Source of the DNA: an uncultured Clostridia bacterium
GTDB lineage: Bacteria > Bacillota > Clostridia > Monoglobales > Monoglobaceae
Reading direction: 5' to 3'
Length of the DNA stretch: 64,000 nt
Assembly (NCBI GenBank): GCA_947625905.1
Contig: CANQQJ010000007.1
Location: 18,714 to 82,713, forward strand
Shown here piece by piece: positions 596 to 31,682 of the stretch. The notes below the pieces were generated by a model that was given only the letters and a program-made list of their open reading frames with translations, was not told where the DNA came from and did not search any database. Position 1 is the stretch's first letter. Every line of letters begins with the position of its first letter. Position numbers and translations under genes: made by a program.

Positions 596-623
596 TTTAC
601 TTTTTTGCCGCATTGTGCTACAA
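596..623 (+). promoter_or_regulatory. Sigma-A-type promoter for the structured leader and AbrB-like gene
   Basis: TTTACT (596-601), 16-nt spacer, TG-N-TACAAT extended -10 (618-623); predicted start near 630, where stem P1 begins. Confidence 0.5.
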
Positions 624-630
624 TAGTTTC

Positions 631-793
631 GCAACACAAATTAAATATTATTATACATTGAAAAGACCTAGGTGTGCGTTTGTTAAAAACGCACGCTTGG
701 AAACAATTGCCTATGGTCTTTTCAATACATTAGGTTAAATTTGTGTTGCAATCCAAGCTGCGTTTTTTGCGCGGCTTTTGCCGCGCTTTTTTT
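631..793 (+). ncRNA. Candidate structured leader RNA or small RNA ending in an intrinsic terminator
   Basis: Perfect stems 631-642/738-749 and 657-668/715-726 (12 bp each) and 674-681/687-694 (8 bp). Alternative pairing 686-701/752-766. Terminator GCGCGGC-TTTT-GCCGCGC-T7 at 769-793. Confidence 0.6.
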
Positions 794-821
794 ATCGGCA
801 ATCGCGAAAGGAGAGACAAGC

Positions 822-1087: not shown

Positions 1088-1450
1088 CTATAATTCTTTT
1101 ATTCCCTTAGCTTTTTGCATAACCGCCGTTATCAGCAGGATCACGGCGAAAATCCCGGCGACCGCCGACCATACTTTAAGGTCGGTATATGTGCCGGCCG
1201 ACGCCGCGGCGGTCAGCGCTCCGACCGCATAGAAGCACACCGAAACGATCGTCCCCGCGAAGCTTTTACGCGCCGCGACAGACACGATCCCCGCGACCAG
1301 CATACAGACCGCGAGAAGCATTCCCGCCGTGCCGCTTACCTCGCCGCTCTCCGCGAGCGTGTTTCCGACTCCCACAGCGCAGGACTGCAGCATGATCAGC
1401 ACGCAAAGCACAATTGATATTATTCCTATGATCATTCTTAGTATTTTCAT
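1088..1450 (-). CDS. Small multi-pass membrane protein, unknown function
   Basis: 120 aa, about four hydrophobic segments, GGAGG RBS, directly downstream of the lipoprotein gene. Confidence 0.7.
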   Translation of the reverse strand: MKILRMIIGIISIVLCVLIMLQSCAVGVGNTLAESGEVSGTAGMLLAVCMLVAGIVSVAARKSFAGTIVSVCFYAVGALTAAASAGTYTDLKVWSAVAGIFAVILLITAVMQKAKGIKEL

Positions 1451-1461
1451 TTTTATTCCTC

Positions 1462-2028
1462 CTACTGCAGCGTTATTGTTCCGCTAATTTTTTTGCCGCT
1501 TATGCCGAGCCAGTCCGTGACCGTCACGGTGATCTGCGAAGTCGCGCTTCTCAATTTATACGCCGCCTCGACGTCGAGCGCTCCGCCGTTTTGAACCGTG
1601 GTAAGCGACGGCTGCGCGTCATAGGTACCGTCGGTTATTATCGCGTTTTCAAGGCCGACGCCGTCCTGGAACAGCTTGACCGACGCCGCGGTCGTGAACA
1701 TCGCCTCGTCGCTTCCAGTGTTTTTGTAATTAAATTTTAATATTATCGCGGGGTTCCCCTGATAGTCCTTTCCGATCCTCGCGCCTTTGTATGTCAACAC
1801 GCAGTCGGGAAGCTCGGCCGTGTTTCCGATTTGCAGTTCCTCAGTGCCGTTTGTCTGCGCCCGGTCTTGCGTTTGAGTTTGCGCTTGCGTCTGATTTTGG
1901 CTCTGAGCCTGATTTTGCGTCTGCTGCCCGCTCTGCGCCGCTCCGCTCTGCTGCGTGTTTGAAGCGCCGCATGAGCACATTGAAACGGCCGCAACCGCAG
2001 CCAGAATTAACGCGGATATTTTTTTCAT
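1462..2028 (-). CDS. DUF5067/DUF4352-like Ig-fold lipoprotein
   Basis: Start MKKISAL at 2028 (GGAGG); lipobox-like SMCSC; Gln/Thr-rich linker; C-terminal FQDGVGL...VQNGGALDVEAAY pattern. Confidence 0.6.
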   Translation of the reverse strand: MKKISALILAAVAAVSMCSCGASNTQQSGAAQSGQQTQNQAQSQNQTQAQTQTQDRAQTNGTEELQIGNTAELPDCVLTYKGARIGKDYQGNPAIILKFNYKNTGSDEAMFTTAASVKLFQDGVGLENAIITDGTYDAQPSLTTVQNGGALDVEAAYKLRSATSQITVTVTDWLGISGKKISGTITLQ

Positions 2029-2114
2029 GCTGATCCCTCCGAATTTAATTAATATAAAAATAAAGCATTGCAAATACTTTCATAAATATTATACAATGCT
2101 TTGATCTATATTTG

Positions 2115-3200
2115 TTATACCCGCAGTATAAATTTAAGTATGTCGGTCCCGCCGCCGTAGAGAACGATCATAATAACAAACGCGATAAACAGCAGCAAGA
2201 TCCACTCTTTGGCCCCGAAACGCCTGAATCTGAAAATTTTTCCGATTTTTTTGTAATTCGCCATAAACGCGAACGGCAGAATGAATATGGATATAACGCT
2301 CCAGATTTCGGAAAGTATCGAGTATGCGTCTTTGACCGTAACGATCTTTTGGACCGAGGCGCCGAGCCCGCCGAAAAAAATCAGATAATACGCCGCGCAT
2401 ATCGCGGCATGGGCGGCGTTTCCGTTTCTGAAACCCGGAATATATCTATAAAACGGCTTTTTGATCTTGACGGTCCCGGGATCTCCGCTTCCGTAAATCG
2501 CGCCCATAAGCTCGACGACAGATGAATATCTGTCCTCCATCCGCATACTAAGGCATCTGCGGATTATTTTTCCCGCCTCTCCTCCGGCGATCTTCCTGTT
2601 AGGCATTTCTCCGGTCAGCATATAGTTCATCAAAACGCCGACGGAATATATGTCGCTTCTGGCGTCGGTCTGTGCGAAGCCGAACTGCTCGGGCGGAGCG
2701 TAGCCCGCAGTACCCATGATCGTCGTGTCGGACGAGGCTCCGAGCCGCACGCTGCGCGATATGCCGAAGTCGATAAGCTTCGCGGAGCCGCCGTCTATCA
2801 TAACATTGCCCGCCGAAATATCACGGTGAATAATATTTATGTTGTGCATTTCAGCGAGAAGCCCGAGCACGGGCCGCAGCGTTTTCATGACCTCGTCGGG
2901 GCTCATCGGGCCGTTTTGACTTATGTATTTTTCAACGGTCACGCCGTTGATCAGCTCCTCGATAACCACGGCGTAATCGCGGTACCTGTGGACGCAGAGC
3001 ACCCGAGCCTTCGCCTCGGACTGTATACGCGAAAGCCGATCGTATATGTCCGCGCGCTCCAAAGACACGTTTTTTCTCACGTACAGACGCCCCGAGCGCT
3101 CGTCTCTGACAAGGCACACCGAGCCGTCGTCGTTCATTTTTTCAACATCATAGCATACCGCGAACAAATTGTCGTCGTAATTTGAGTTAAATTCCGTCAT
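2115..3200 (-). CDS. Hanks-type Ser/Thr protein kinase with C-terminal transmembrane helices
   Basis: HRD, DFG and GTAGYAPPE motifs; hydrophobic C-terminus. Confidence 0.85.
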   Translation of the reverse strand: MTEFNSNYDDNLFAVCYDVEKMNDDGSVCLVRDERSGRLYVRKNVSLERADIYDRLSRIQSEAKARVLCVHRYRDYAVVIEELINGVTVEKYISQNGPMSPDEVMKTLRPVLGLLAEMHNINIIHRDISAGNVMIDGGSAKLIDFGISRSVRLGASSDTTIMGTAGYAPPEQFGFAQTDARSDIYSVGVLMNYMLTGEMPNRKIAGGEAGKIIRRCLSMRMEDRYSSVVELMGAIYGSGDPGTVKIKKPFYRYIPGFRNGNAAHAAICAAYYLIFFGGLGASVQKIVTVKDAYSILSEIWSVISIFILPFAFMANYKKIGKIFRFRRFGAKEWILLLFIAFVIMIVLYGGGTDILKFILRV

Positions 3201-4212: not shown

Positions 4213-4314
4213 ACGGGCGGCAGATTGCCGCCCCTACAGGTTTGGTGCAATTTGCACGGATCGCGGCAATCCAATATATCATCGTGCCTGTAGGGGCGGA
4301 TATTATCCGCCCGT
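4213..4314. repeat. Inverted pair of GTAG-type REP palindromes (REPIN-like)
   Basis: 4213-4238 reads TGTAGGGGCGGCAATCTGCCGCCCGT on minus; 4289-4314 reads TGTAGGGGCGGATATTATCCGCCCGT on plus. Confidence 0.8.
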
Positions 4315-4315
4315 T

Positions 4316-5515
4316 TTACAAATCCAAAATGTGGCCCATTTTGGATTTTTTGGTTTTGAGATAGAATCGGTTCGTGTCGTTGGGCTCGATCTGTATCGGG
4401 ACGCGCTCGGCTATCTCCATGCCGAATCCCGACAGCTGATATATTTTGTCGGGATTGTTGGTGAGCAGCCGCAGTGTCTTGGCTCCCAGATCACGCAGGA
4501 TCTGCGCGCCGATATAATACTCCCTCAGATCGCCCTCAAATCCCAGAGCGATGTTGGCCTCGAGGGTGTCAAGCCCGCCGTCCTGCAGCTCGTAGGCGCG
4601 CAGCTTGTTTATAAGCCCTATGCCCCTGCCCTCCTGCCTCATGTAAAGCAGGATGCCGCGGCCTTCCTTTTCGATAGCGGTCATCGCCGCCGCCAGCTGC
4701 TGGCCGCAGTCGCAGCGCAGCGAGCCGAAAGCGTCTCCCGTCAGGCACTCGGAGTGGACGCGGCACAGAAGATCCCTTCCGTCTCCGATATCGCCCTTGA
4801 CAAGCGCCACATGGTGCTCGCCGTTGAGCTTGTTGACATAGCCGTACGCTTTGAAACTGCCGTACTTAGTGGGCAGCTTGGTGGACGCCACCCGCTCGAC
4901 CAGCACGTCGTACTGTTTGCGGTAGTCGCTCAGAGCGCGTATGGTGATATATTTAAGCCCCCACTTTTCCGCGAACTCTGCAAGCTCGTCGCGGCGCATC
5001 ATGGTCCCATCGTCGCGCATTATCTCGCAGCACAGTCCGACCGGTCCGAGCCCCGCCAGCCGCATAAGGTCCACCGCCGCCTCGGTGTGGCCCCGCCGCT
5101 CGAGCACTCCGTTTTTCTTAGAGACCAGCGGGAACATATGCCCCGGACGCCTGAAATCCTCGGGCTTTGAGCTTGCGTCCGCGCACTTCATCGCGGTCAT
5201 CGACCGCTCCGCCGCCGATATGCCCGTGGTCGTTCCGACGTAATCCGCCGACACGGTGAAGGCCGTCTCGTGGTTGTCGGTGTTGTCATCTACCATCTGC
5301 GGGAATTTGAGGCGCCGCGCGGTCTCGGCGTCCATCGGCATACAGATCAGGCCTTTGGCGTATTTTGCCATAAAGTTCACGTTCTCGGCAGCCGCGAACT
5401 CGGCGGCGCAGATCAAGTCGCCTTCGTTCTCTCGGCTCTCGTCGTCCGAAACAACAATTATTTCGCCGTTTTTGAGCGCCTCAAGCGCCTCGGGGATCTC
5501 CGAAAATTTCATCAT
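4316..5515 (-). CDS. ribBA: Bifunctional DHBP synthase / GTP cyclohydrolase II
   Basis: [35 protein letters not shown] motifs. Confidence 0.97.
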
Positions 5516-5530
5516 TCACACCATTCCTTT

Positions 5531-6163
5531 CTAAAACCCGTATTTCGCCAAAAATTCTCTCGTTATCCCTCCGCCGTTTTTTGCGGAAAGAATTTTTTCA
5601 ACGTACTTCGCGATGCAGTCGGTCTCTATGTTGACCGCGTCTCCGGCCTTTTTGCGGCTCAGCATCGTATTTTCCGCGGTGTGGGGTATGACCGAGACCG
5701 TGAAGCCGCCGCCTTTGACATCGGCCACGGTCAAGCTTATCCCGTCGACAGCGACCGAGCCTTTTTCGACAATATGCCGAGCGAGCTCTCCTGCCTCTAT
5801 GGTGTACAAAACAGCGTTGTCGTCGCTTTTGATGCCCGTGATCCTGCCGGCGCCGTCTATATGCCCGCTCACTATGTGGCCGCCCATGCGTCCGCCGAGC
5901 ATTACGGCGCGCTCAAGATTCACGCCGCTGCCGACCTTGAGCGAGCCCAGCAGCGAGCGGCTCAGCGTCTCGCGCATAACGTCGGCGGTGAAAGTCCTGC
6001 CTGAAATTTCGACGGCGGTCAGGCACACGCCGCTGACCGAGACGCTGTCGCCTATCTTAAGGTCGTCGAATATCTTGTCTCCCGCGATCGTCAGTCTCGA
6101 CGAGGCCCTGCCGCTGACTATCCTCTTTATCTCTCCTATTTCCTCTATTATCCCCGTGAACAC
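5531..6163 (-). CDS. ribE: Riboflavin synthase
   Basis: MFTGIIEE N-terminus, GGHIVSGHID, VNIETD. Confidence 0.97.
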   Translation of the reverse strand: MFTGIIEEIGEIKRIVSGRASSRLTIAGDKIFDDLKIGDSVSVSGVCLTAVEISGRTFTADVMRETLSRSLLGSLKVGSGVNLERAVMLGGRMGGHIVSGHIDGAGRITGIKSDDNAVLYTIEAGELARHIVEKGSVAVDGISLTVADVKGGGFTVSVIPHTAENTMLSRKKAGDAVNIETDCIAKYVEKILSAKNGGGITREFLAKYGF

Positions 6164-7242
6164 TTGATATCCCCCTCTATCAGAAAATCATCGCCCAGGC
6201 GGCTGATCTTCGGCTCGCTTATCCGAAACGCCTGCGACGGGTCGGAAACTCCGACGCCGCCCACCGGTGTCTTGGCCGCCGCGCCTCCGAATATCTTGGG
6301 CGCGATATAGCACTTGACGTGATCGACTATGCCCGCTCTCAGCGCCGACCACGCGATCTCACCGCCGCCCTCGATAATAACGCTGTCGATCTTGAGCTCG
6401 CCGAGCTTTTTCATAAGCAGCTTCAGGTTGACCTGTCCGTCTCTGCCCGCGGCGCGGATAACGCGGCAGCCCGCTTTGGTATACGCCTCGGCGCGCTTTC
6501 CGCTGCCCGAGCAGGTCGCGATAACGGTCGGTATTTCCTTGGCGGTGCGCACGAGCTTTGAGTCGAGCGGGGTCATAAGAGTGCTGTCGCACACTATGCG
6601 CGTCGGGTTTGTTCCGCCTTCTATGCGGCACGTCAGCTCGGGATCGTCGGCGATAACCGTGTTCACGCCGACTAAGATCGCCGAATAGGCGTTTCTGTCG
6701 CGGTGGGTGTCCTCGCGGGCTTTTTCTCCCGTTATCCATTTGGATCTTCCGCTCGCCGCCGCGATTTTTCCGTCGGCGGTCATGGCGTATTTGAGCATCA
6801 CGTAAGGCTCGCCGCTCGTGATATAACGCATAAAAATTTTGTTGAGCTCAAGGCACTCTTTTTCAAGCACTCCGACAACGGTCTCAACTCCGTTCCGCCG
6901 CAGCCTTTCGGCGCCGCCTCCGCCCACCTTGGGATTCGGGTCAAGACTGCCGATAAACACTCTTTTTATGCCGCTCTCGATCACAGCGTCGGCGCAGGGC
7001 GGCGTTTTGCCAAAGTGGCAGCAAGGCTCAAGCGTCACGTACATATCGGCTCCGCTCGGGTCCTCCGAGCAGGCCGCCAGCGCGTTCCGCTCGGCGTGGG
7101 GCCCGCCGTATTTTTTGTGGTACCCCTCGCCTATTATCCTGCCGTCCTTCACTATCACGCAGCCGACCATCGGATTGGGCGAGGTTCTTCCCCTGCCCTT
7201 TGCCGCCAGCTCGAGCGCGCGGCGCATGTACTTTTCATCCAT
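6148..7242 (-). CDS. ribD: Bifunctional pyrimidine deaminase / reductase
   Basis: PNPMVG, HAE, VTLEPCCH...PPC, IEGGG motifs. Confidence 0.97.
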   Translation of the reverse strand: MDEKYMRRALELAAKGRGRTSPNPMVGCVIVKDGRIIGEGYHKKYGGPHAERNALAACSEDPSGADMYVTLEPCCHFGKTPPCADAVIESGIKRVFIGSLDPNPKVGGGGAERLRRNGVETVVGVLEKECLELNKIFMRYITSGEPYVMLKYAMTADGKIAAASGRSKWITGEKAREDTHRDRNAYSAILVGVNTVIADDPELTCRIEGGTNPTRIVCDSTLMTPLDSKLVRTAKEIPTVIATCSGSGKRAEAYTKAGCRVIRAAGRDGQVNLKLLMKKLGELKIDSVIIEGGGEIAWSALRAGIVDHVKCYIAPKIFGGAAAKTPVGGVGVSDPSQAFRISEPKISRLGDDFLIEGDIKCSRG

Positions 7243-7326: not shown

Positions 7327-7344
7327 CGTTTTTACATAATGAGT

Positions 7345-7456
7345 TCCTTCTCACATCCGGACTTTGACCGTCGGCTTCGGAATCTCACCGAATCATGCCA
7401 AAATGGCTCGCGGGCTGTACCGCCGGTAGGGACTTTCACCCTGCCCTGAAGAAAAT
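7345..7456 (-). promoter_or_regulatory. FMN riboswitch (RFN element)
   Basis: Minus strand reads TCTTCAGGGCAGGGTGAAAGTCCCTACCGGCGGT...GATTCGGTGAGATTCCGAAGCCGACGGTCAAAGTCCGGATGTGAGAAG, matching the canonical RFN pattern, upstream of the rib operon. Confidence 0.97.
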
Positions 7457-7640
7457 ATTTTTTCTGTACTTTATAATATCACTCGCATCCGCCTTTGTCA
7501 ACCCCAAAATTTGAGGCGGAATACAAGAAATTCCGCCGCGATAAACAATAATTTGTGTAATTTTAACTTGCAATCGCCGCGGTTTGCCATTATAATTAAT
7601 AGATGTGAAAATAATACAGTGATCAAATAAGGAGAAAGAT

Positions 7641-29489: not shown

Positions 29490-31682
29490 TTAATGCCGCC
29501 GTCTGTTGACCGAAATAATACCGCTCAGGTTCTTGATGTCCTTGATTATTTTGTCAAGCTGGCGGGTGTTCGATATCTGCGCGGTGACCTCCACAATTGC
29601 CAGATCGTTTTTGCCCGTTCTGGCGTTTACGTTTGTTACCGGGGCTTTTGTCTCGTTTATTATATTCATAATGTCGACCAGAAGATTAACTCGGTCCGAG
29701 GCGGTGATGGTTATGGTGGACTTGTACGAAAGCGGTGTTTCGGGATCCTCTATCCAGTGCACCGATATCAATCGACCGCGCTCCAGTTCACTGTTTTGCG
29801 CGTTGATGATGTTGAGGCAATCCGCTCTGTGGATCGCCACTCCTCTGCCTCTGGTCACATAGCCGACAATATCATCGCCCGGGATCGGATTGCAGCAACG
29901 GGAAAAGCGAACCATACAGTTCTCGATACCCTCGACCGCAACGCCGCCCGCGCTGCTCTTGGGGCCCTGCTTGACCTTTATGGGCACTGCCAGTTCCTCG
30001 GGCGTGACCTCGCGCTCAAGCAGGCGTCTGCTCTTTGATTCGGTTATGAAACGATTCACAAAGCGCGTACCGTTCACCCCGCCGAATCCCACGGCGGCGT
30101 ACAGATCGGTTATCTCCTTAAATCCGTACCGCTTGAGCAGCGGATCAACAAAATCCGCATCCTCGATATATTTCTGCGGTATATTATTTTTGGACATCTC
30201 TTTTTCGAGTGCCGTTCTGCCTTTTTCGATATTCTCCTCACGGTTGACCTTTTTGAACCACTGGTTTATCTTGTTGCGCGCCTCGTTGGTCTTGCATATC
30301 TTGAGCCAGTCGATATTGGGGCCGTGAGGCGTGGAGCTTGTGATTATATCCACAAAGTCGCCGTTGCGCAGCTCGTGAGACAGCGGCACGATCTTGCCGT
30401 TGACCTTGGCGCCTATCATCTTGTTTCCGACCGCGCTGTGTATTTTGTACGCGAAATCTATCGGCGTGGAGCCCACCGGCAGGGCCTTGACGTCGCCCTT
30501 CGGCGTGAACACGAAAACCTCGTCGCTGAACATATCTATCTTGAGGGTCTCCATGAACTCGTCGGGATTGGTGGTCTCCTTCTGAAGCTCCAGCAGATTC
30601 TTTATCCAGGCCAGCTTCTCGTCCATATCGTCGGTACCGCTTTTGCCCTCTTTGTACTTCCAGTGGGCCGCGATACCGTTCTCGGCGATTTGGTGCATCT
30701 CCCATGTTCTGATCTGTATCTCAAACGGGGTGCCTCCGGGGCCTATAAGCGTCGAGTGCAGCGACTGGTACATATTCGGCTTGGGCATCGCGATATAATC
30801 CTTGAACCTGCCCGGCATCGGAGTGTACAGCTCGTGCACCATGCCCAGCACCGCGTAACAGTCGGCCACTGTGTCGACTATCACGCGCACCGCAAACAGA
30901 TCATACAGCTCGTCGATCGTCTTGTTCTGCATAAACATCTTTCTGTATATGCTGTAAAAATGCTTGGCTCTGCCGTAGGCGGTCGCCTTGATATTCATTT
31001 CATCAAGCTTCTTTTTGATTATGTCAATGATCTCGCTGATATATTGCTCGCGCTCCTCACGCTTTTGAGCGATATTGTCCACGATCTCATAATAGCCTAT
31101 AGGGTCGATGTAACGAAGCGCCAGATCCTCAAGCTCCATCTTGATCTTCGCCATACCCAAGCGATGAGCCAAAGGCGAGTACACCTCAAGCGTCTCGCGG
31201 GATATCGCGCGCTGGCGGTCCTCCTTCATGAAGCGCAGAGTGCGCATGTTGTGGAGCCTGTCGGCGAGCTTGATTATGATGACGCGCACGTCCTTCGCCA
31301 TTGCGAAAAACATCTTGCGCAGCGTCTCTACCTGCTGCTCCTCTTTTGAGGAATACGGGATTTTGGCCAGCTTTGTAACGCCGTCCACCAGCATGGCGAC
31401 GGTCTCACCGAATTCGCGCACCAGATCTTCTCGAGTGGCCTCGGTATCCTCGACCACGTCGTGAAGCAGTGCGGCGCAGATCGACTCGGTGTCAAATTCC
31501 ATCTCGGCGATGATCGACGCTACCTGAATGGGATGGTTGACAAAAGGCTCGCCCGATTTGCGCTTTTGGCCCTCATGATGCTCAACGGCATAGTGATAAG
31601 CCTTCTCCACCTGGGATAGGTCGCCGTTTTTATTATATTTTCTGATCAAATCAATTAAAGTAGAAAGCTCGTTGCCCTTCAT
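29490..31682 (-). CDS. rel: Bifunctional (p)ppGpp synthetase/hydrolase
   Basis: RKSGEPF, LLHDVVED, KLADRLHN, YQSLH, EIQIRT, HWKYK; TGS, ZFD and ACT domains. Confidence 0.97.
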   Translation of the reverse strand: MKGNELSTLIDLIRKYNKNGDLSQVEKAYHYAVEHHEGQKRKSGEPFVNHPIQVASIIAEMEFDTESICAALLHDVVEDTEATREDLVREFGETVAMLVDGVTKLAKIPYSSKEEQQVETLRKMFFAMAKDVRVIIIKLADRLHNMRTLRFMKEDRQRAISRETLEVYSPLAHRLGMAKIKMELEDLALRYIDPIGYYEIVDNIAQKREEREQYISEIIDIIKKKLDEMNIKATAYGRAKHFYSIYRKMFMQNKTIDELYDLFAVRVIVDTVADCYAVLGMVHELYTPMPGRFKDYIAMPKPNMYQSLHSTLIGPGGTPFEIQIRTWEMHQIAENGIAAHWKYKEGKSGTDDMDEKLAWIKNLLELQKETTNPDEFMETLKIDMFSDEVFVFTPKGDVKALPVGSTPIDFAYKIHSAVGNKMIGAKVNGKIVPLSHELRNGDFVDIITSSTPHGPNIDWLKICKTNEARNKINQWFKKVNREENIEKGRTALEKEMSKNNIPQKYIEDADFVDPLLKRYGFKEITDLYAAVGFGGVNGTRFVNRFITESKSRRLLEREVTPEELAVPIKVKQGPKSSAGGVAVEGIENCMVRFSRCCNPIPGDDIVGYVTRGRGVAIHRADCLNIINAQNSELERGRLISVHWIEDPETPLSYKSTITITASDRVNLLVDIMNIINETKAPVTNVNARTGKNDLAIVEVTAQISNTRQLDKIIKDIKNLSGIISVNRRRH

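Follow-up and report, generated by a model that had tools for sequence, protein, structure and literature searches.

Among the described regulatory leaders, those closest to the element analyzed here include the Escherichia coli trp leader, with its alternative 1:2, 2:3 and 3:4 helices, and the PyrR-bound pyr leaders of Bacillus subtilis, which consist of an anti-antiterminator, an antiterminator and a terminator. Moreover, some transcriptional riboswitches have an expression platform that depends on a pseudoknot. Here we analyze a leader encoded on the + strand of a 64-kb stretch of a Monoglobaceae contig (the reference sequence, hereafter the window; region analyzed, 596-824), directly upstream of a gene for a small protein that combines an AbrB/SpoVT-type domain with a zinc ribbon. 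Sequence, folding energetics and limited covariation point to a cis-acting transcription attenuator that controls this gene and belongs to an undescribed RNA family, a reading to which we assign a probability of roughly 0.55.

As in the trp and pyr leaders, neighboring segments, here denoted A to E, can pair alternately (A:B, B:C, C:D, D:E), the last helix is a terminator in front of the gene, and the antiterminator makes use of the 5' arm of the terminator. This leader differs from those systems in having neither a leader peptide nor a PyrR, TRAP or ribonucleic antiterminator (RAT)-like motif, in its extra level (four helices), and in the long, fast-evolving rod around the first hairpin. With the pseudoknot-platform riboswitches it shares the layout of promoter, aptamer-like domain, terminator and gene, along with a 3' strand (C) that would either dock on the sensor domain or form the antiterminator. 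Unlike riboswitches, however, it has internal loops and junctions that are not conserved, is confined to one genus, suggests no ligand and precedes a gene whose product is a small protein of the DNA-binding type, not one with a role in metabolism or transport. The component features, with minimum free energy abbreviated as MFE, are the following.

596-624, + strand: sigma-70-type promoter, with the -35 element TTTACT at 596-601, a 17-nt spacer and the extended -10 element TGcTACAAT at 616-624
631-642/738-749, + strand: helix P1, 12 of 12 bp, extending to about 631-646/734-749 (MFE fold and repeat finder)
Between P1 and P2, + strand: bubble with 14 unpaired nt in the 5' strand and 11 in the 3' strand
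657-668/715-726, + strand: helix P2, 12 of 12 bp, continued by UAGG(U)/(G)CCUA at 669-673/709-713 with U714 bulged (fold and repeat finder)
674-694, + strand: P3 hairpin, segment A (674-681) paired with 687-694 in 8 of 8 bp, loop GUUAA at 682-686
685-701, + strand: segment B, the P3 3' arm with the conserved linker GCUUGGA (695-701), complementary to C
752-767, + strand: segment C (UCCAAGCUGCGUUUUU), unpaired in the MFE fold and almost invariant, able to pair with B or D
755-777, + strand: predicted antiterminator hairpin C:D, 755-763/769-777, 9 bp including two G·U pairs, loop U5, -13.5 kcal/mol
769-793, + strand: intrinsic terminator D:E, stem 769-775/780-786, loop UUUU, U7 at 787-793
808-816 and 822-824, + strand: Shine-Dalgarno (SD) sequence AAAGGAGAG and GTG start codon
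822-1076, + strand: gene for the AbrB/SpoVT-type and zinc-ribbon protein, 84 aa

A promoter, a structured leader and a terminator in front of one gene

The promoter matches the consensus at 9 of 12 positions, carries the TG extension in addition, and is near-identical base for base across all lineages of the element, with the exception of the odd contig L002 discussed below. Transcription is predicted to start at about 630-631, that is, at the first base of P1. An earlier note on this DNA had recognized the promoter and had likewise put the start at P1, but closed the promoter one base short, at 623 instead of 624. At the other end of the leader, the stem of the terminator (GCGCGGC-UUUU-GCCGCGC, 769-786) consists of seven G-C pairs (-16.0 kcal/mol) and is invariant in all lineages. 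The SD sequence, which follows the U-tract at a distance of 14 nt, is kept in the homologs, where the start codon is either GTG or ATG. Hence, a canonical intrinsic terminator stands between the promoter and the ribosome-binding site (RBS), and a scan of the 14-nt gap between terminator and SD yielded no promoter match, an arrangement that is the same in all lineages. Given that the gap is too short to accommodate a promoter and that none lies behind the terminator, expression of the gene would depend on read-through, and attenuation in cis is the natural reading.

The module consisting of promoter, leader, terminator, RBS and gene was detected in eight further loci (L001-L008), all of them Monoglobus metagenome-assembled genomes (MAGs) or gut-metagenome contigs. 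The sequences fall into about four lineages, namely the window with L001; L005; L006 with L007 and L002; and L003 with L004 and L008. The comparison of related upstream regions, which the earlier note had named as a way of checking its candidate, shows the leader conserved in these eight loci, with covarying pairs in P1 and in the B:C helix. The flanks differ: a divergent DUF4160 pair lies upstream in the window, L001, L005 and L006, spoIIID in L003 and L004, and something else in L007, where homology with the window begins at about 584. The same order of elements within different flanks points to a self-contained module that moves between genomic contexts.

The distribution of the module is narrow, comprising a few uncultured gut Monoglobus lineages of a single genus. 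Only four close protein clusters were present in a database of 5.8 billion proteins, to which a profile search added one distant cluster, and a DNA pattern built from P3 and the linker matched four GTDB species genomes, all of them MAGs from rabbit gut labeled 'uncultured Monoglobus sp.'. A scan of viral contigs with the C-D pattern gave 0 matches, blastn searches of plasmid and phage collections with the module gave none, and contigs from four DNA sequencing runs yielded no new variants of the locus. Searches with nhmmer and the covariance model found one copy of the element per locus and one in the 64-kb window; weak additional matches of the covariance model (29596-29670 of the window, and others) are coding sequence. 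Five pattern matches in Joint Genome Institute (JGI) metagenomes were discarded as chance occurrences, located inside unrelated coding regions and lacking a terminator.

One of the homologous contigs, L002 (525 nt, 1.1x coverage), has the leader from the bubble onward, but both its promoter and its P1 5' arm are missing; the replaced 5' part (1-90) holds a same-sense copy of TGTGCTG. Either this contig was assembled chimerically or the rearrangement is real.

At gathering thresholds, Rfam 15 produced no match on the element, either in the window or in the eight homologous loci, and a permissive scan of 450-950 (501 nt) returned noise only, with no T-box or riboswitch model and no 6S match at E-values up to 10. 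The best sub-threshold match, PrrF (26.6 bits against a gathering threshold of 90), was carried by the terminator. Literature searches found no description of the element. Thus, the assertion in the earlier note that the leader falls into no recognized riboswitch class holds up.

A chain of mutually exclusive helices

Direct reading of the sequence and a repeat finder place P1, P2, P3, the bubble, the complementarity of 695-701 to 752-758 and the terminator exactly where they had been described previously. The 3' arm of P3 (687-694) is part of segment B, and A:B, B:C, C:D and D:E accordingly form a chain of mutually exclusive helices. This chain, read earlier as a succession of anti-antiterminator, antiterminator and terminator helices, is present in all lineages.

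Segments B and C are complementary over 16 bp, with 695-701 (GCTTGGA) opposite 752-758, 685-693 opposite 759-767 and C694 bulged, and the duplex has an energy of -18 to -21 kcal/mol. On the alignment, 98% of the B:C cells are paired, compared to 30-57% when the partner is slid by one to three columns. Two of the pairs have changed on both sides. At 700/753, the L006 type has A-U in place of G-C; at 701/752, the A-U pair is replaced by U-A in the L008 type and by U·G in L004. Furthermore, the substitution C690U of the L008 type stays a wobble with both partners of this base, G678 in P3 and G762 in C.

The antiterminator C:D is present in all lineages (-11.8 to -13.6 kcal/mol) and is the MFE structure predicted for all transcript prefixes that stop short of E. 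The earlier note had reported a pairing of 756-762 with 770-776; this alternative helix exists, but it is larger, spanning 9 bp rather than 7. By computation, then, the leader possesses both an antiterminator (C:D) and a helix that would sequester it (B:C). The barrier to refolding of the antiterminator into the terminator is about 10.5 kcal/mol by a direct-path estimate, which would correspond, as a rough estimate, to a delay of seconds that outlasts the departure of the polymerase from the U-tract. Given that the stability of the antiterminator comes close to that of the terminator and that such a barrier separates the two, read-through is probably the default outcome in the modeled folding as long as strand C is free.

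It is not the rod that is best conserved in the leader but P3 with the linker that follows it (GCUUGR), along with the 45-nt segment reaching from C to the U-tract; their identity between lineages is 86-98%, with coding sequence (CDS) identity as low as 76%. The conserved unpaired positions are confined to the P3 loop, the GCUUGR linker and strand C. Strand C, the most conserved segment of all, is unpaired in the MFE fold and yet almost invariant, so that its invariance requires a reason.

A stable rod with a fast-evolving stem

The 173-nt stretch reaches an MFE of -67.3 kcal/mol, compared to -37.6 +/- 3.6 kcal/mol in 200 dinucleotide shuffles (z = -8.2), none of which (0 of 200) folds as well; for the homologs, with each lineage folded alone, the z-scores range from -5.7 to -7.4. 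The rod alone has an energy of -45.7 kcal/mol. A common architecture is apparent in each lineage, consisting of P1 of about 16 bp, an internal loop, P2, a one-sided loop of 14-15 nt, P3, the free strand C and the terminator, with P2 extending over 17-19 bp across lineages and longer in the L008 type. In P1, two pairs have changed on both sides in other lineages (G-C in place of A-U at 634/746, U-A in place of C-G at 635/745). P3 is nearly invariant, with 96% of its alignment cells paired, and C690U of the L008 type merely replaces one pair by G·U.

The evolution of P2 follows a different course, as can be seen from the comparison of the window with L006, in which the counterpart of the leader occupies 6928-7089 of the - strand. 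The CDS of the two are 93% identical (84% at third codon positions), and the promoter, P3, C and the terminator are almost identical, whereas the P2/bubble region (647-673, 709-733) is only 35-42% identical; between lineages, the identity of bubble and P2 is 24-42%. The P2 helix is nevertheless near-perfect in both the window and L006, in a shifted pairing register, such that ATTATTATA, a loop in the window, serves in L006 as the P2 5' arm. The covariance model (R1) did not re-register P2 between lineages, and the column-wise count of 73% paired cells is too low because of this shift, understating the helix that each sequence forms alone. Judged from these alignments, the sequence of P2 turns over faster than synonymous sites; recombination, template-switch 'palindrome correction' and diversifying selection are all possible causes. 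As a separate observation, the window, L005 and L006 look mosaic, with P1 differing between the window and L005 and with P2 and P3 identical there.

In the window, P1, P2 and P3 are all perfect Watson-Crick helices and, because the inverted repeats are perfect, the reverse strand folds strongly as well (-61.5 kcal/mol), so that the question of the strand has to be settled by comparison of the homologs. In every lineage, the + strand folds more stably, with an advantage of 3.5-15 kcal/mol over the - strand. In particular, the L008 type contains six G·U pairs that become A·C mismatches on the other strand, leaving the - strand 14-15 kcal/mol worse. The + strand G·U pairs, along with the polarity of the promoter and the terminator, indicate that the functional molecule is the + strand RNA and argue against a DNA palindrome or a mobile element.

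The product of the downstream gene

Residues 4-48 (approximately) of the 84-aa protein match TIGR01439 with 33.8 bits, above the cut-off of 28.3, which places them in the AbrB/SpoVT/MazE domain class; the match to Pfam PF04014 (23.3) is just below the cut-off of 24.7. Profile matches of this N-terminal domain in the PDB are AbrB, Abh and SpoVT (E ~1e-3). The C-terminal part (residues ~51-72) is a CxxC-x14-CxxC zinc ribbon. Over its full length, the protein matches phrog_4681, which is annotated as antitoxin (6.7e-17), and its full-length relatives of about 30% identity come from Paenibacillus, Brevibacillus and Bacillus phages and from human-fecal phage contigs, with annotations as antitoxin or AbrB regulator. 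The N-terminal ~45 residues are what the protein has in common with the swapped-hairpin proteins AbrB, SpoVT and MazE; it differs from the AbrB family by the zinc ribbon and is not orthologous to AbrB, the global regulator of B. subtilis. Hence, 'AbrB-like' in the earlier note is apt at the domain level, whereas 'global-regulator homolog' overstates the protein, the full-length relatives being phage proteins. The AlphaFold model (mean predicted local distance difference test score, pLDDT, of 60) was too poor for a fold search and was not used, and PADLOC found no match of note on the locus.

Proposed mechanism and observations that weigh against it

We propose that transcription starts at about 631 from the conserved extended -10 promoter and that the nascent RNA zips into the long rod (P1, P2), which is capped by the invariant P3 (A:B). 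The following 16 nt, strand C, could then pair with only one of two partners at a time. Should C still be unpaired by the time D has emerged, the 9-bp C:D helix would form first and block the terminator, allowing the polymerase to cross the 28 nt to the RBS and the gene. If, in contrast, C is captured by B (685-701), D would pair with E, transcription would stop and an RNA of ~165 nt would be released. Pairing of B with C would probably begin at the exposed linker (695-701) and spread into P3 through strand exchange, and an effector that shifts the balance between A:B and B:C, or binds C, would set the outcome.

With respect to the nature of this effector, our best guess is a protein, possibly the product of the gene itself, with a small-molecule ligand as the alternative, given that the module is portable, self-contained and always tied to one small nucleic-acid-binding protein. 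Protein-mediated, possibly autoregulatory, attenuation is at least as likely as control by a small ligand. The topology of B:C discussed below, the non-conserved internal loops and the spread within one genus all fit a classical metabolite riboswitch poorly. Accordingly, of the two possibilities named in the earlier note, attenuator or riboswitch, it is the attenuator logic that receives support, whereas the classical small-molecule version of the latter does not sit well with the data.

Several observations weigh against the attenuator as proposed. Only 2 nt (750-751) join the base of P1 to C, and B is located at the far end of a helix of about 30 bp (more in the L008 type). The pseudoknot between 695-701 and 752-758 that was suggested earlier has a real basis, in that the complementarity extends to the 16-bp B:C helix with two covarying pairs, but, with such a short connection, it cannot coexist with the straight rod in the modeled structures. 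Replacement of the rod by B:C costs ~14-19 kcal/mol (the lowest-energy structure containing both B:C and the terminator reaches -48.3 kcal/mol, versus -62 to -67 kcal/mol), a price that makes it hard to account for how C would be sequestered. For B:C to form, the rod must be bent sharply at the large internal loop or opened by something, or else B:C must form in trans.

The covariation statistics, with about four independent lineages, are weak: control shuffles reach the observed paired-cell and covariation-score values in 2-9 cases of 500, but match the observed number of double-sided pair changes in as many as 33 and 215 of 500. Moreover, C, D and E never vary, leaving the antiterminator without support from covariation. 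The distant homolog P0005 has a short, plain 5' untranslated region (UTR) instead of such a leader, and the phage homologs, which are located in operons or behind plain promoters, have none either. Finally, among the sequencing runs searched, the locus is covered by DNA runs only and by no RNA run.

Alternative explanations

We consider it rather unlikely, but worth weighing, that the leader is a sensor of a new riboswitch class or an RNA operator of its own gene product, with the rod as a scaffold of which only the shape matters. If the latter were true, a protein with an AbrB fold and a zinc ribbon would be an RNA-binding autoregulator that acts by attenuation; to our knowledge, this mode of action is not known for the AbrB fold.

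Similarly doubtful is the possibility that the product of interest is a stand-alone small RNA (sRNA) of ~165 nt, in which C serves as a seed for targets elsewhere and the gene is expressed by incidental read-through, or else that the leader has a dual function as attenuator and source of a trans-acting product. The element indeed has its own promoter and a strong terminator, C is single-stranded, invariant and directly upstream of the terminator like many seed regions, and B:C could be seen as intramolecular mimicry of a target. However, the element is always found directly before the same gene with no promoter in between, complements of C elsewhere in the 64-kb window occur at chance level (6 matches versus 7.2 expected), and an sRNA does not need an antiterminator that overlaps the terminator.

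Attenuation through a leader peptide was rejected, given that no length-conserved or SD-preceded open reading frame (ORF) is present in the leader across the four lineages. Nor does the leader resemble an ANTAR-type site, in which a tandem pair of hairpins carries six-nucleotide loops with A at position 1 and G at position 4 and the downstream hairpin overlaps the terminator; the loops here, GUUAA and UUUUU, are both of 5 nt.

It is improbable that the leader is a constitutive structured 5' UTR without any switch, in which the rod and a leaky terminator fix a low level of expression or stabilize the mRNA, for example through RNase III or 5'-end protection. Such an explanation draws on the great stability of the rod, which makes alternative folds of B uphill, on the variable sequence of P2, which suggests that only shape matters, and on the fact that no effector is known. 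It leaves unexplained, however, why the unpaired strand C is invariant and has a covarying match to B, and why a precisely overlapping antiterminator is kept in all lineages.

In type III toxin-antitoxin systems (ToxIN), an antitoxin RNA made of tandem repeats is combined with a ToxN/AbiE-like endoribonuclease toxin. An RNA-protein partner module of a comparable kind, in which the RNA binds or neutralizes the protein and the terminator sets the stoichiometry, appears very unlikely here. Both have the order of promoter, non-coding RNA, intrinsic terminator and protein gene in one portable module, which in our case occurs in variable contexts, and the full-length match of the protein is to the antitoxin-annotated phrog_4681. 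In contrast to ToxIN, the RNA has no antitoxin tandem repeats, the only candidates being two 11-nt rows of low score (34-36) that coincide with strand C and the terminator hairpin itself. The protein, for its part, has an AbrB/MazE-type DNA-binding fold with a zinc ribbon and is not a ToxN/AbiE-like endoribonuclease, and PADLOC lends no support.

Still less probable is a feature that acts at the DNA level, either a palindrome resembling miniature inverted-repeat transposable elements (MITEs) or repetitive extragenic palindromes (REPs), or a pair of inverted operator half-sites (GCTTGGA 695-701 / 752-758). The perfect Watson-Crick stems of the window, which fold on both strands, would be compatible with it, the changes at 700/753 and 701/752 also resemble those of co-evolving half-sites, and AbrB-type proteins bind DNA. 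Nevertheless, a palindromic repeat would be expected in many copies per genome, whereas the element is single in the window and in each locus; the half-site spacing varies by lineage; and the pairing that is kept, C690U (G·U in P3, U·G in B:C), U·G at 701/752 in L004 and the six G·U pairs of the L008 type, is specific to the + strand, which is also the strand of the promoter and the terminator.

The divergent 6S-like RNA entertained in the earlier note is barely credible, since beyond a superficial likeness in size and rod-with-bubble shape, the element gives no 6S match, has a separate terminator hairpin at its 3' end that is not part of the closing stem, does not conserve the bubble sequence and is tied to one gene in one genus.

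If the attenuator is confirmed, it would add an undescribed family of structured leaders to the terminator/antiterminator attenuators, with an unusually clean natural chain of five strands forming mutually exclusive helices. The combination of an almost invariant switch core with a stem of rapid sequence turnover is a useful case for the maintenance of RNA structure. Furthermore, relatives of the regulated protein are common in Firmicutes phages, so that the leader may hint at how such proteins are dosed. The reach of these conclusions is limited to a few uncultured Monoglobus lineages from gut metagenomes.

Pairings near the start codon and neighboring features

In the window lineage, B positions 690-699 (CGCACGCTTG) are complementary at 10 of 10 positions to 817-826 (CAAGCGTGCG), which comprises the spacer and the GTG start (-20.1 kcal/mol; shuffles as good, 0 of 500). 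Elsewhere, only 7 bp of this pairing are kept in L005, and it is weaker in the L006 and L008 types. Moreover, GTGCGTT (674-680) and AAACAATTG (701-709) recur in the first codons of the gene, at 827-833 and 835-843, respectively. In read-through transcripts, E together with the U-tract could base-pair, within 780-828, with the SD (810-816) and the start codon (822-828), and the combination of the antiterminator with E paired to the translation initiation region (TIR) is approximately isoenergetic with that of the terminator and a free TIR in 5 of 6 sequences. This pairing of E with the TIR may represent an added translational layer or a side effect of the GC-rich, GCG(N)UGC-type repeats.

Matches to two known RNA families were recorded outside the module. 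An FMN riboswitch (RF00050; 112.5 bits, full length) is located at 7341-7457 on the - strand of the window, upstream of an ORF at 6148-7242 (-), and is found at an equal distance from the leader in L006 (141-257). A skipping-rope RNA (RF02924; 49.1 bits against a gathering threshold of 36.7) is present in L007 at 4244-4340 (+), about 0.5 kb from the leader module and on the opposite strand.

To the left of the leader, positions 1-560 of the window (- strand) hold a divergent two-gene pair with an extended -10 promoter at 560-532, in which a gene for an 88-aa protein without a family match (243-506) is followed, further left, by that for a DUF4160 protein, as seen in L001. The pair looks like a toxin-antitoxin system and lies outside the leader module, because other lineages carry spoIIID or other genes in its place. 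To the right, a terminator-like hairpin (1065-1089, scored on the - strand) is situated between the AbrB-type gene and a convergent gene for a 120-aa membrane protein. Beyond the latter gene, within the region 1088-3200 (-), lie two more genes, one at 1462-2028 for a DUF5067 lipoprotein and one at 2115-3200 for a Ser/Thr protein kinase that has a membrane region at its C terminus.

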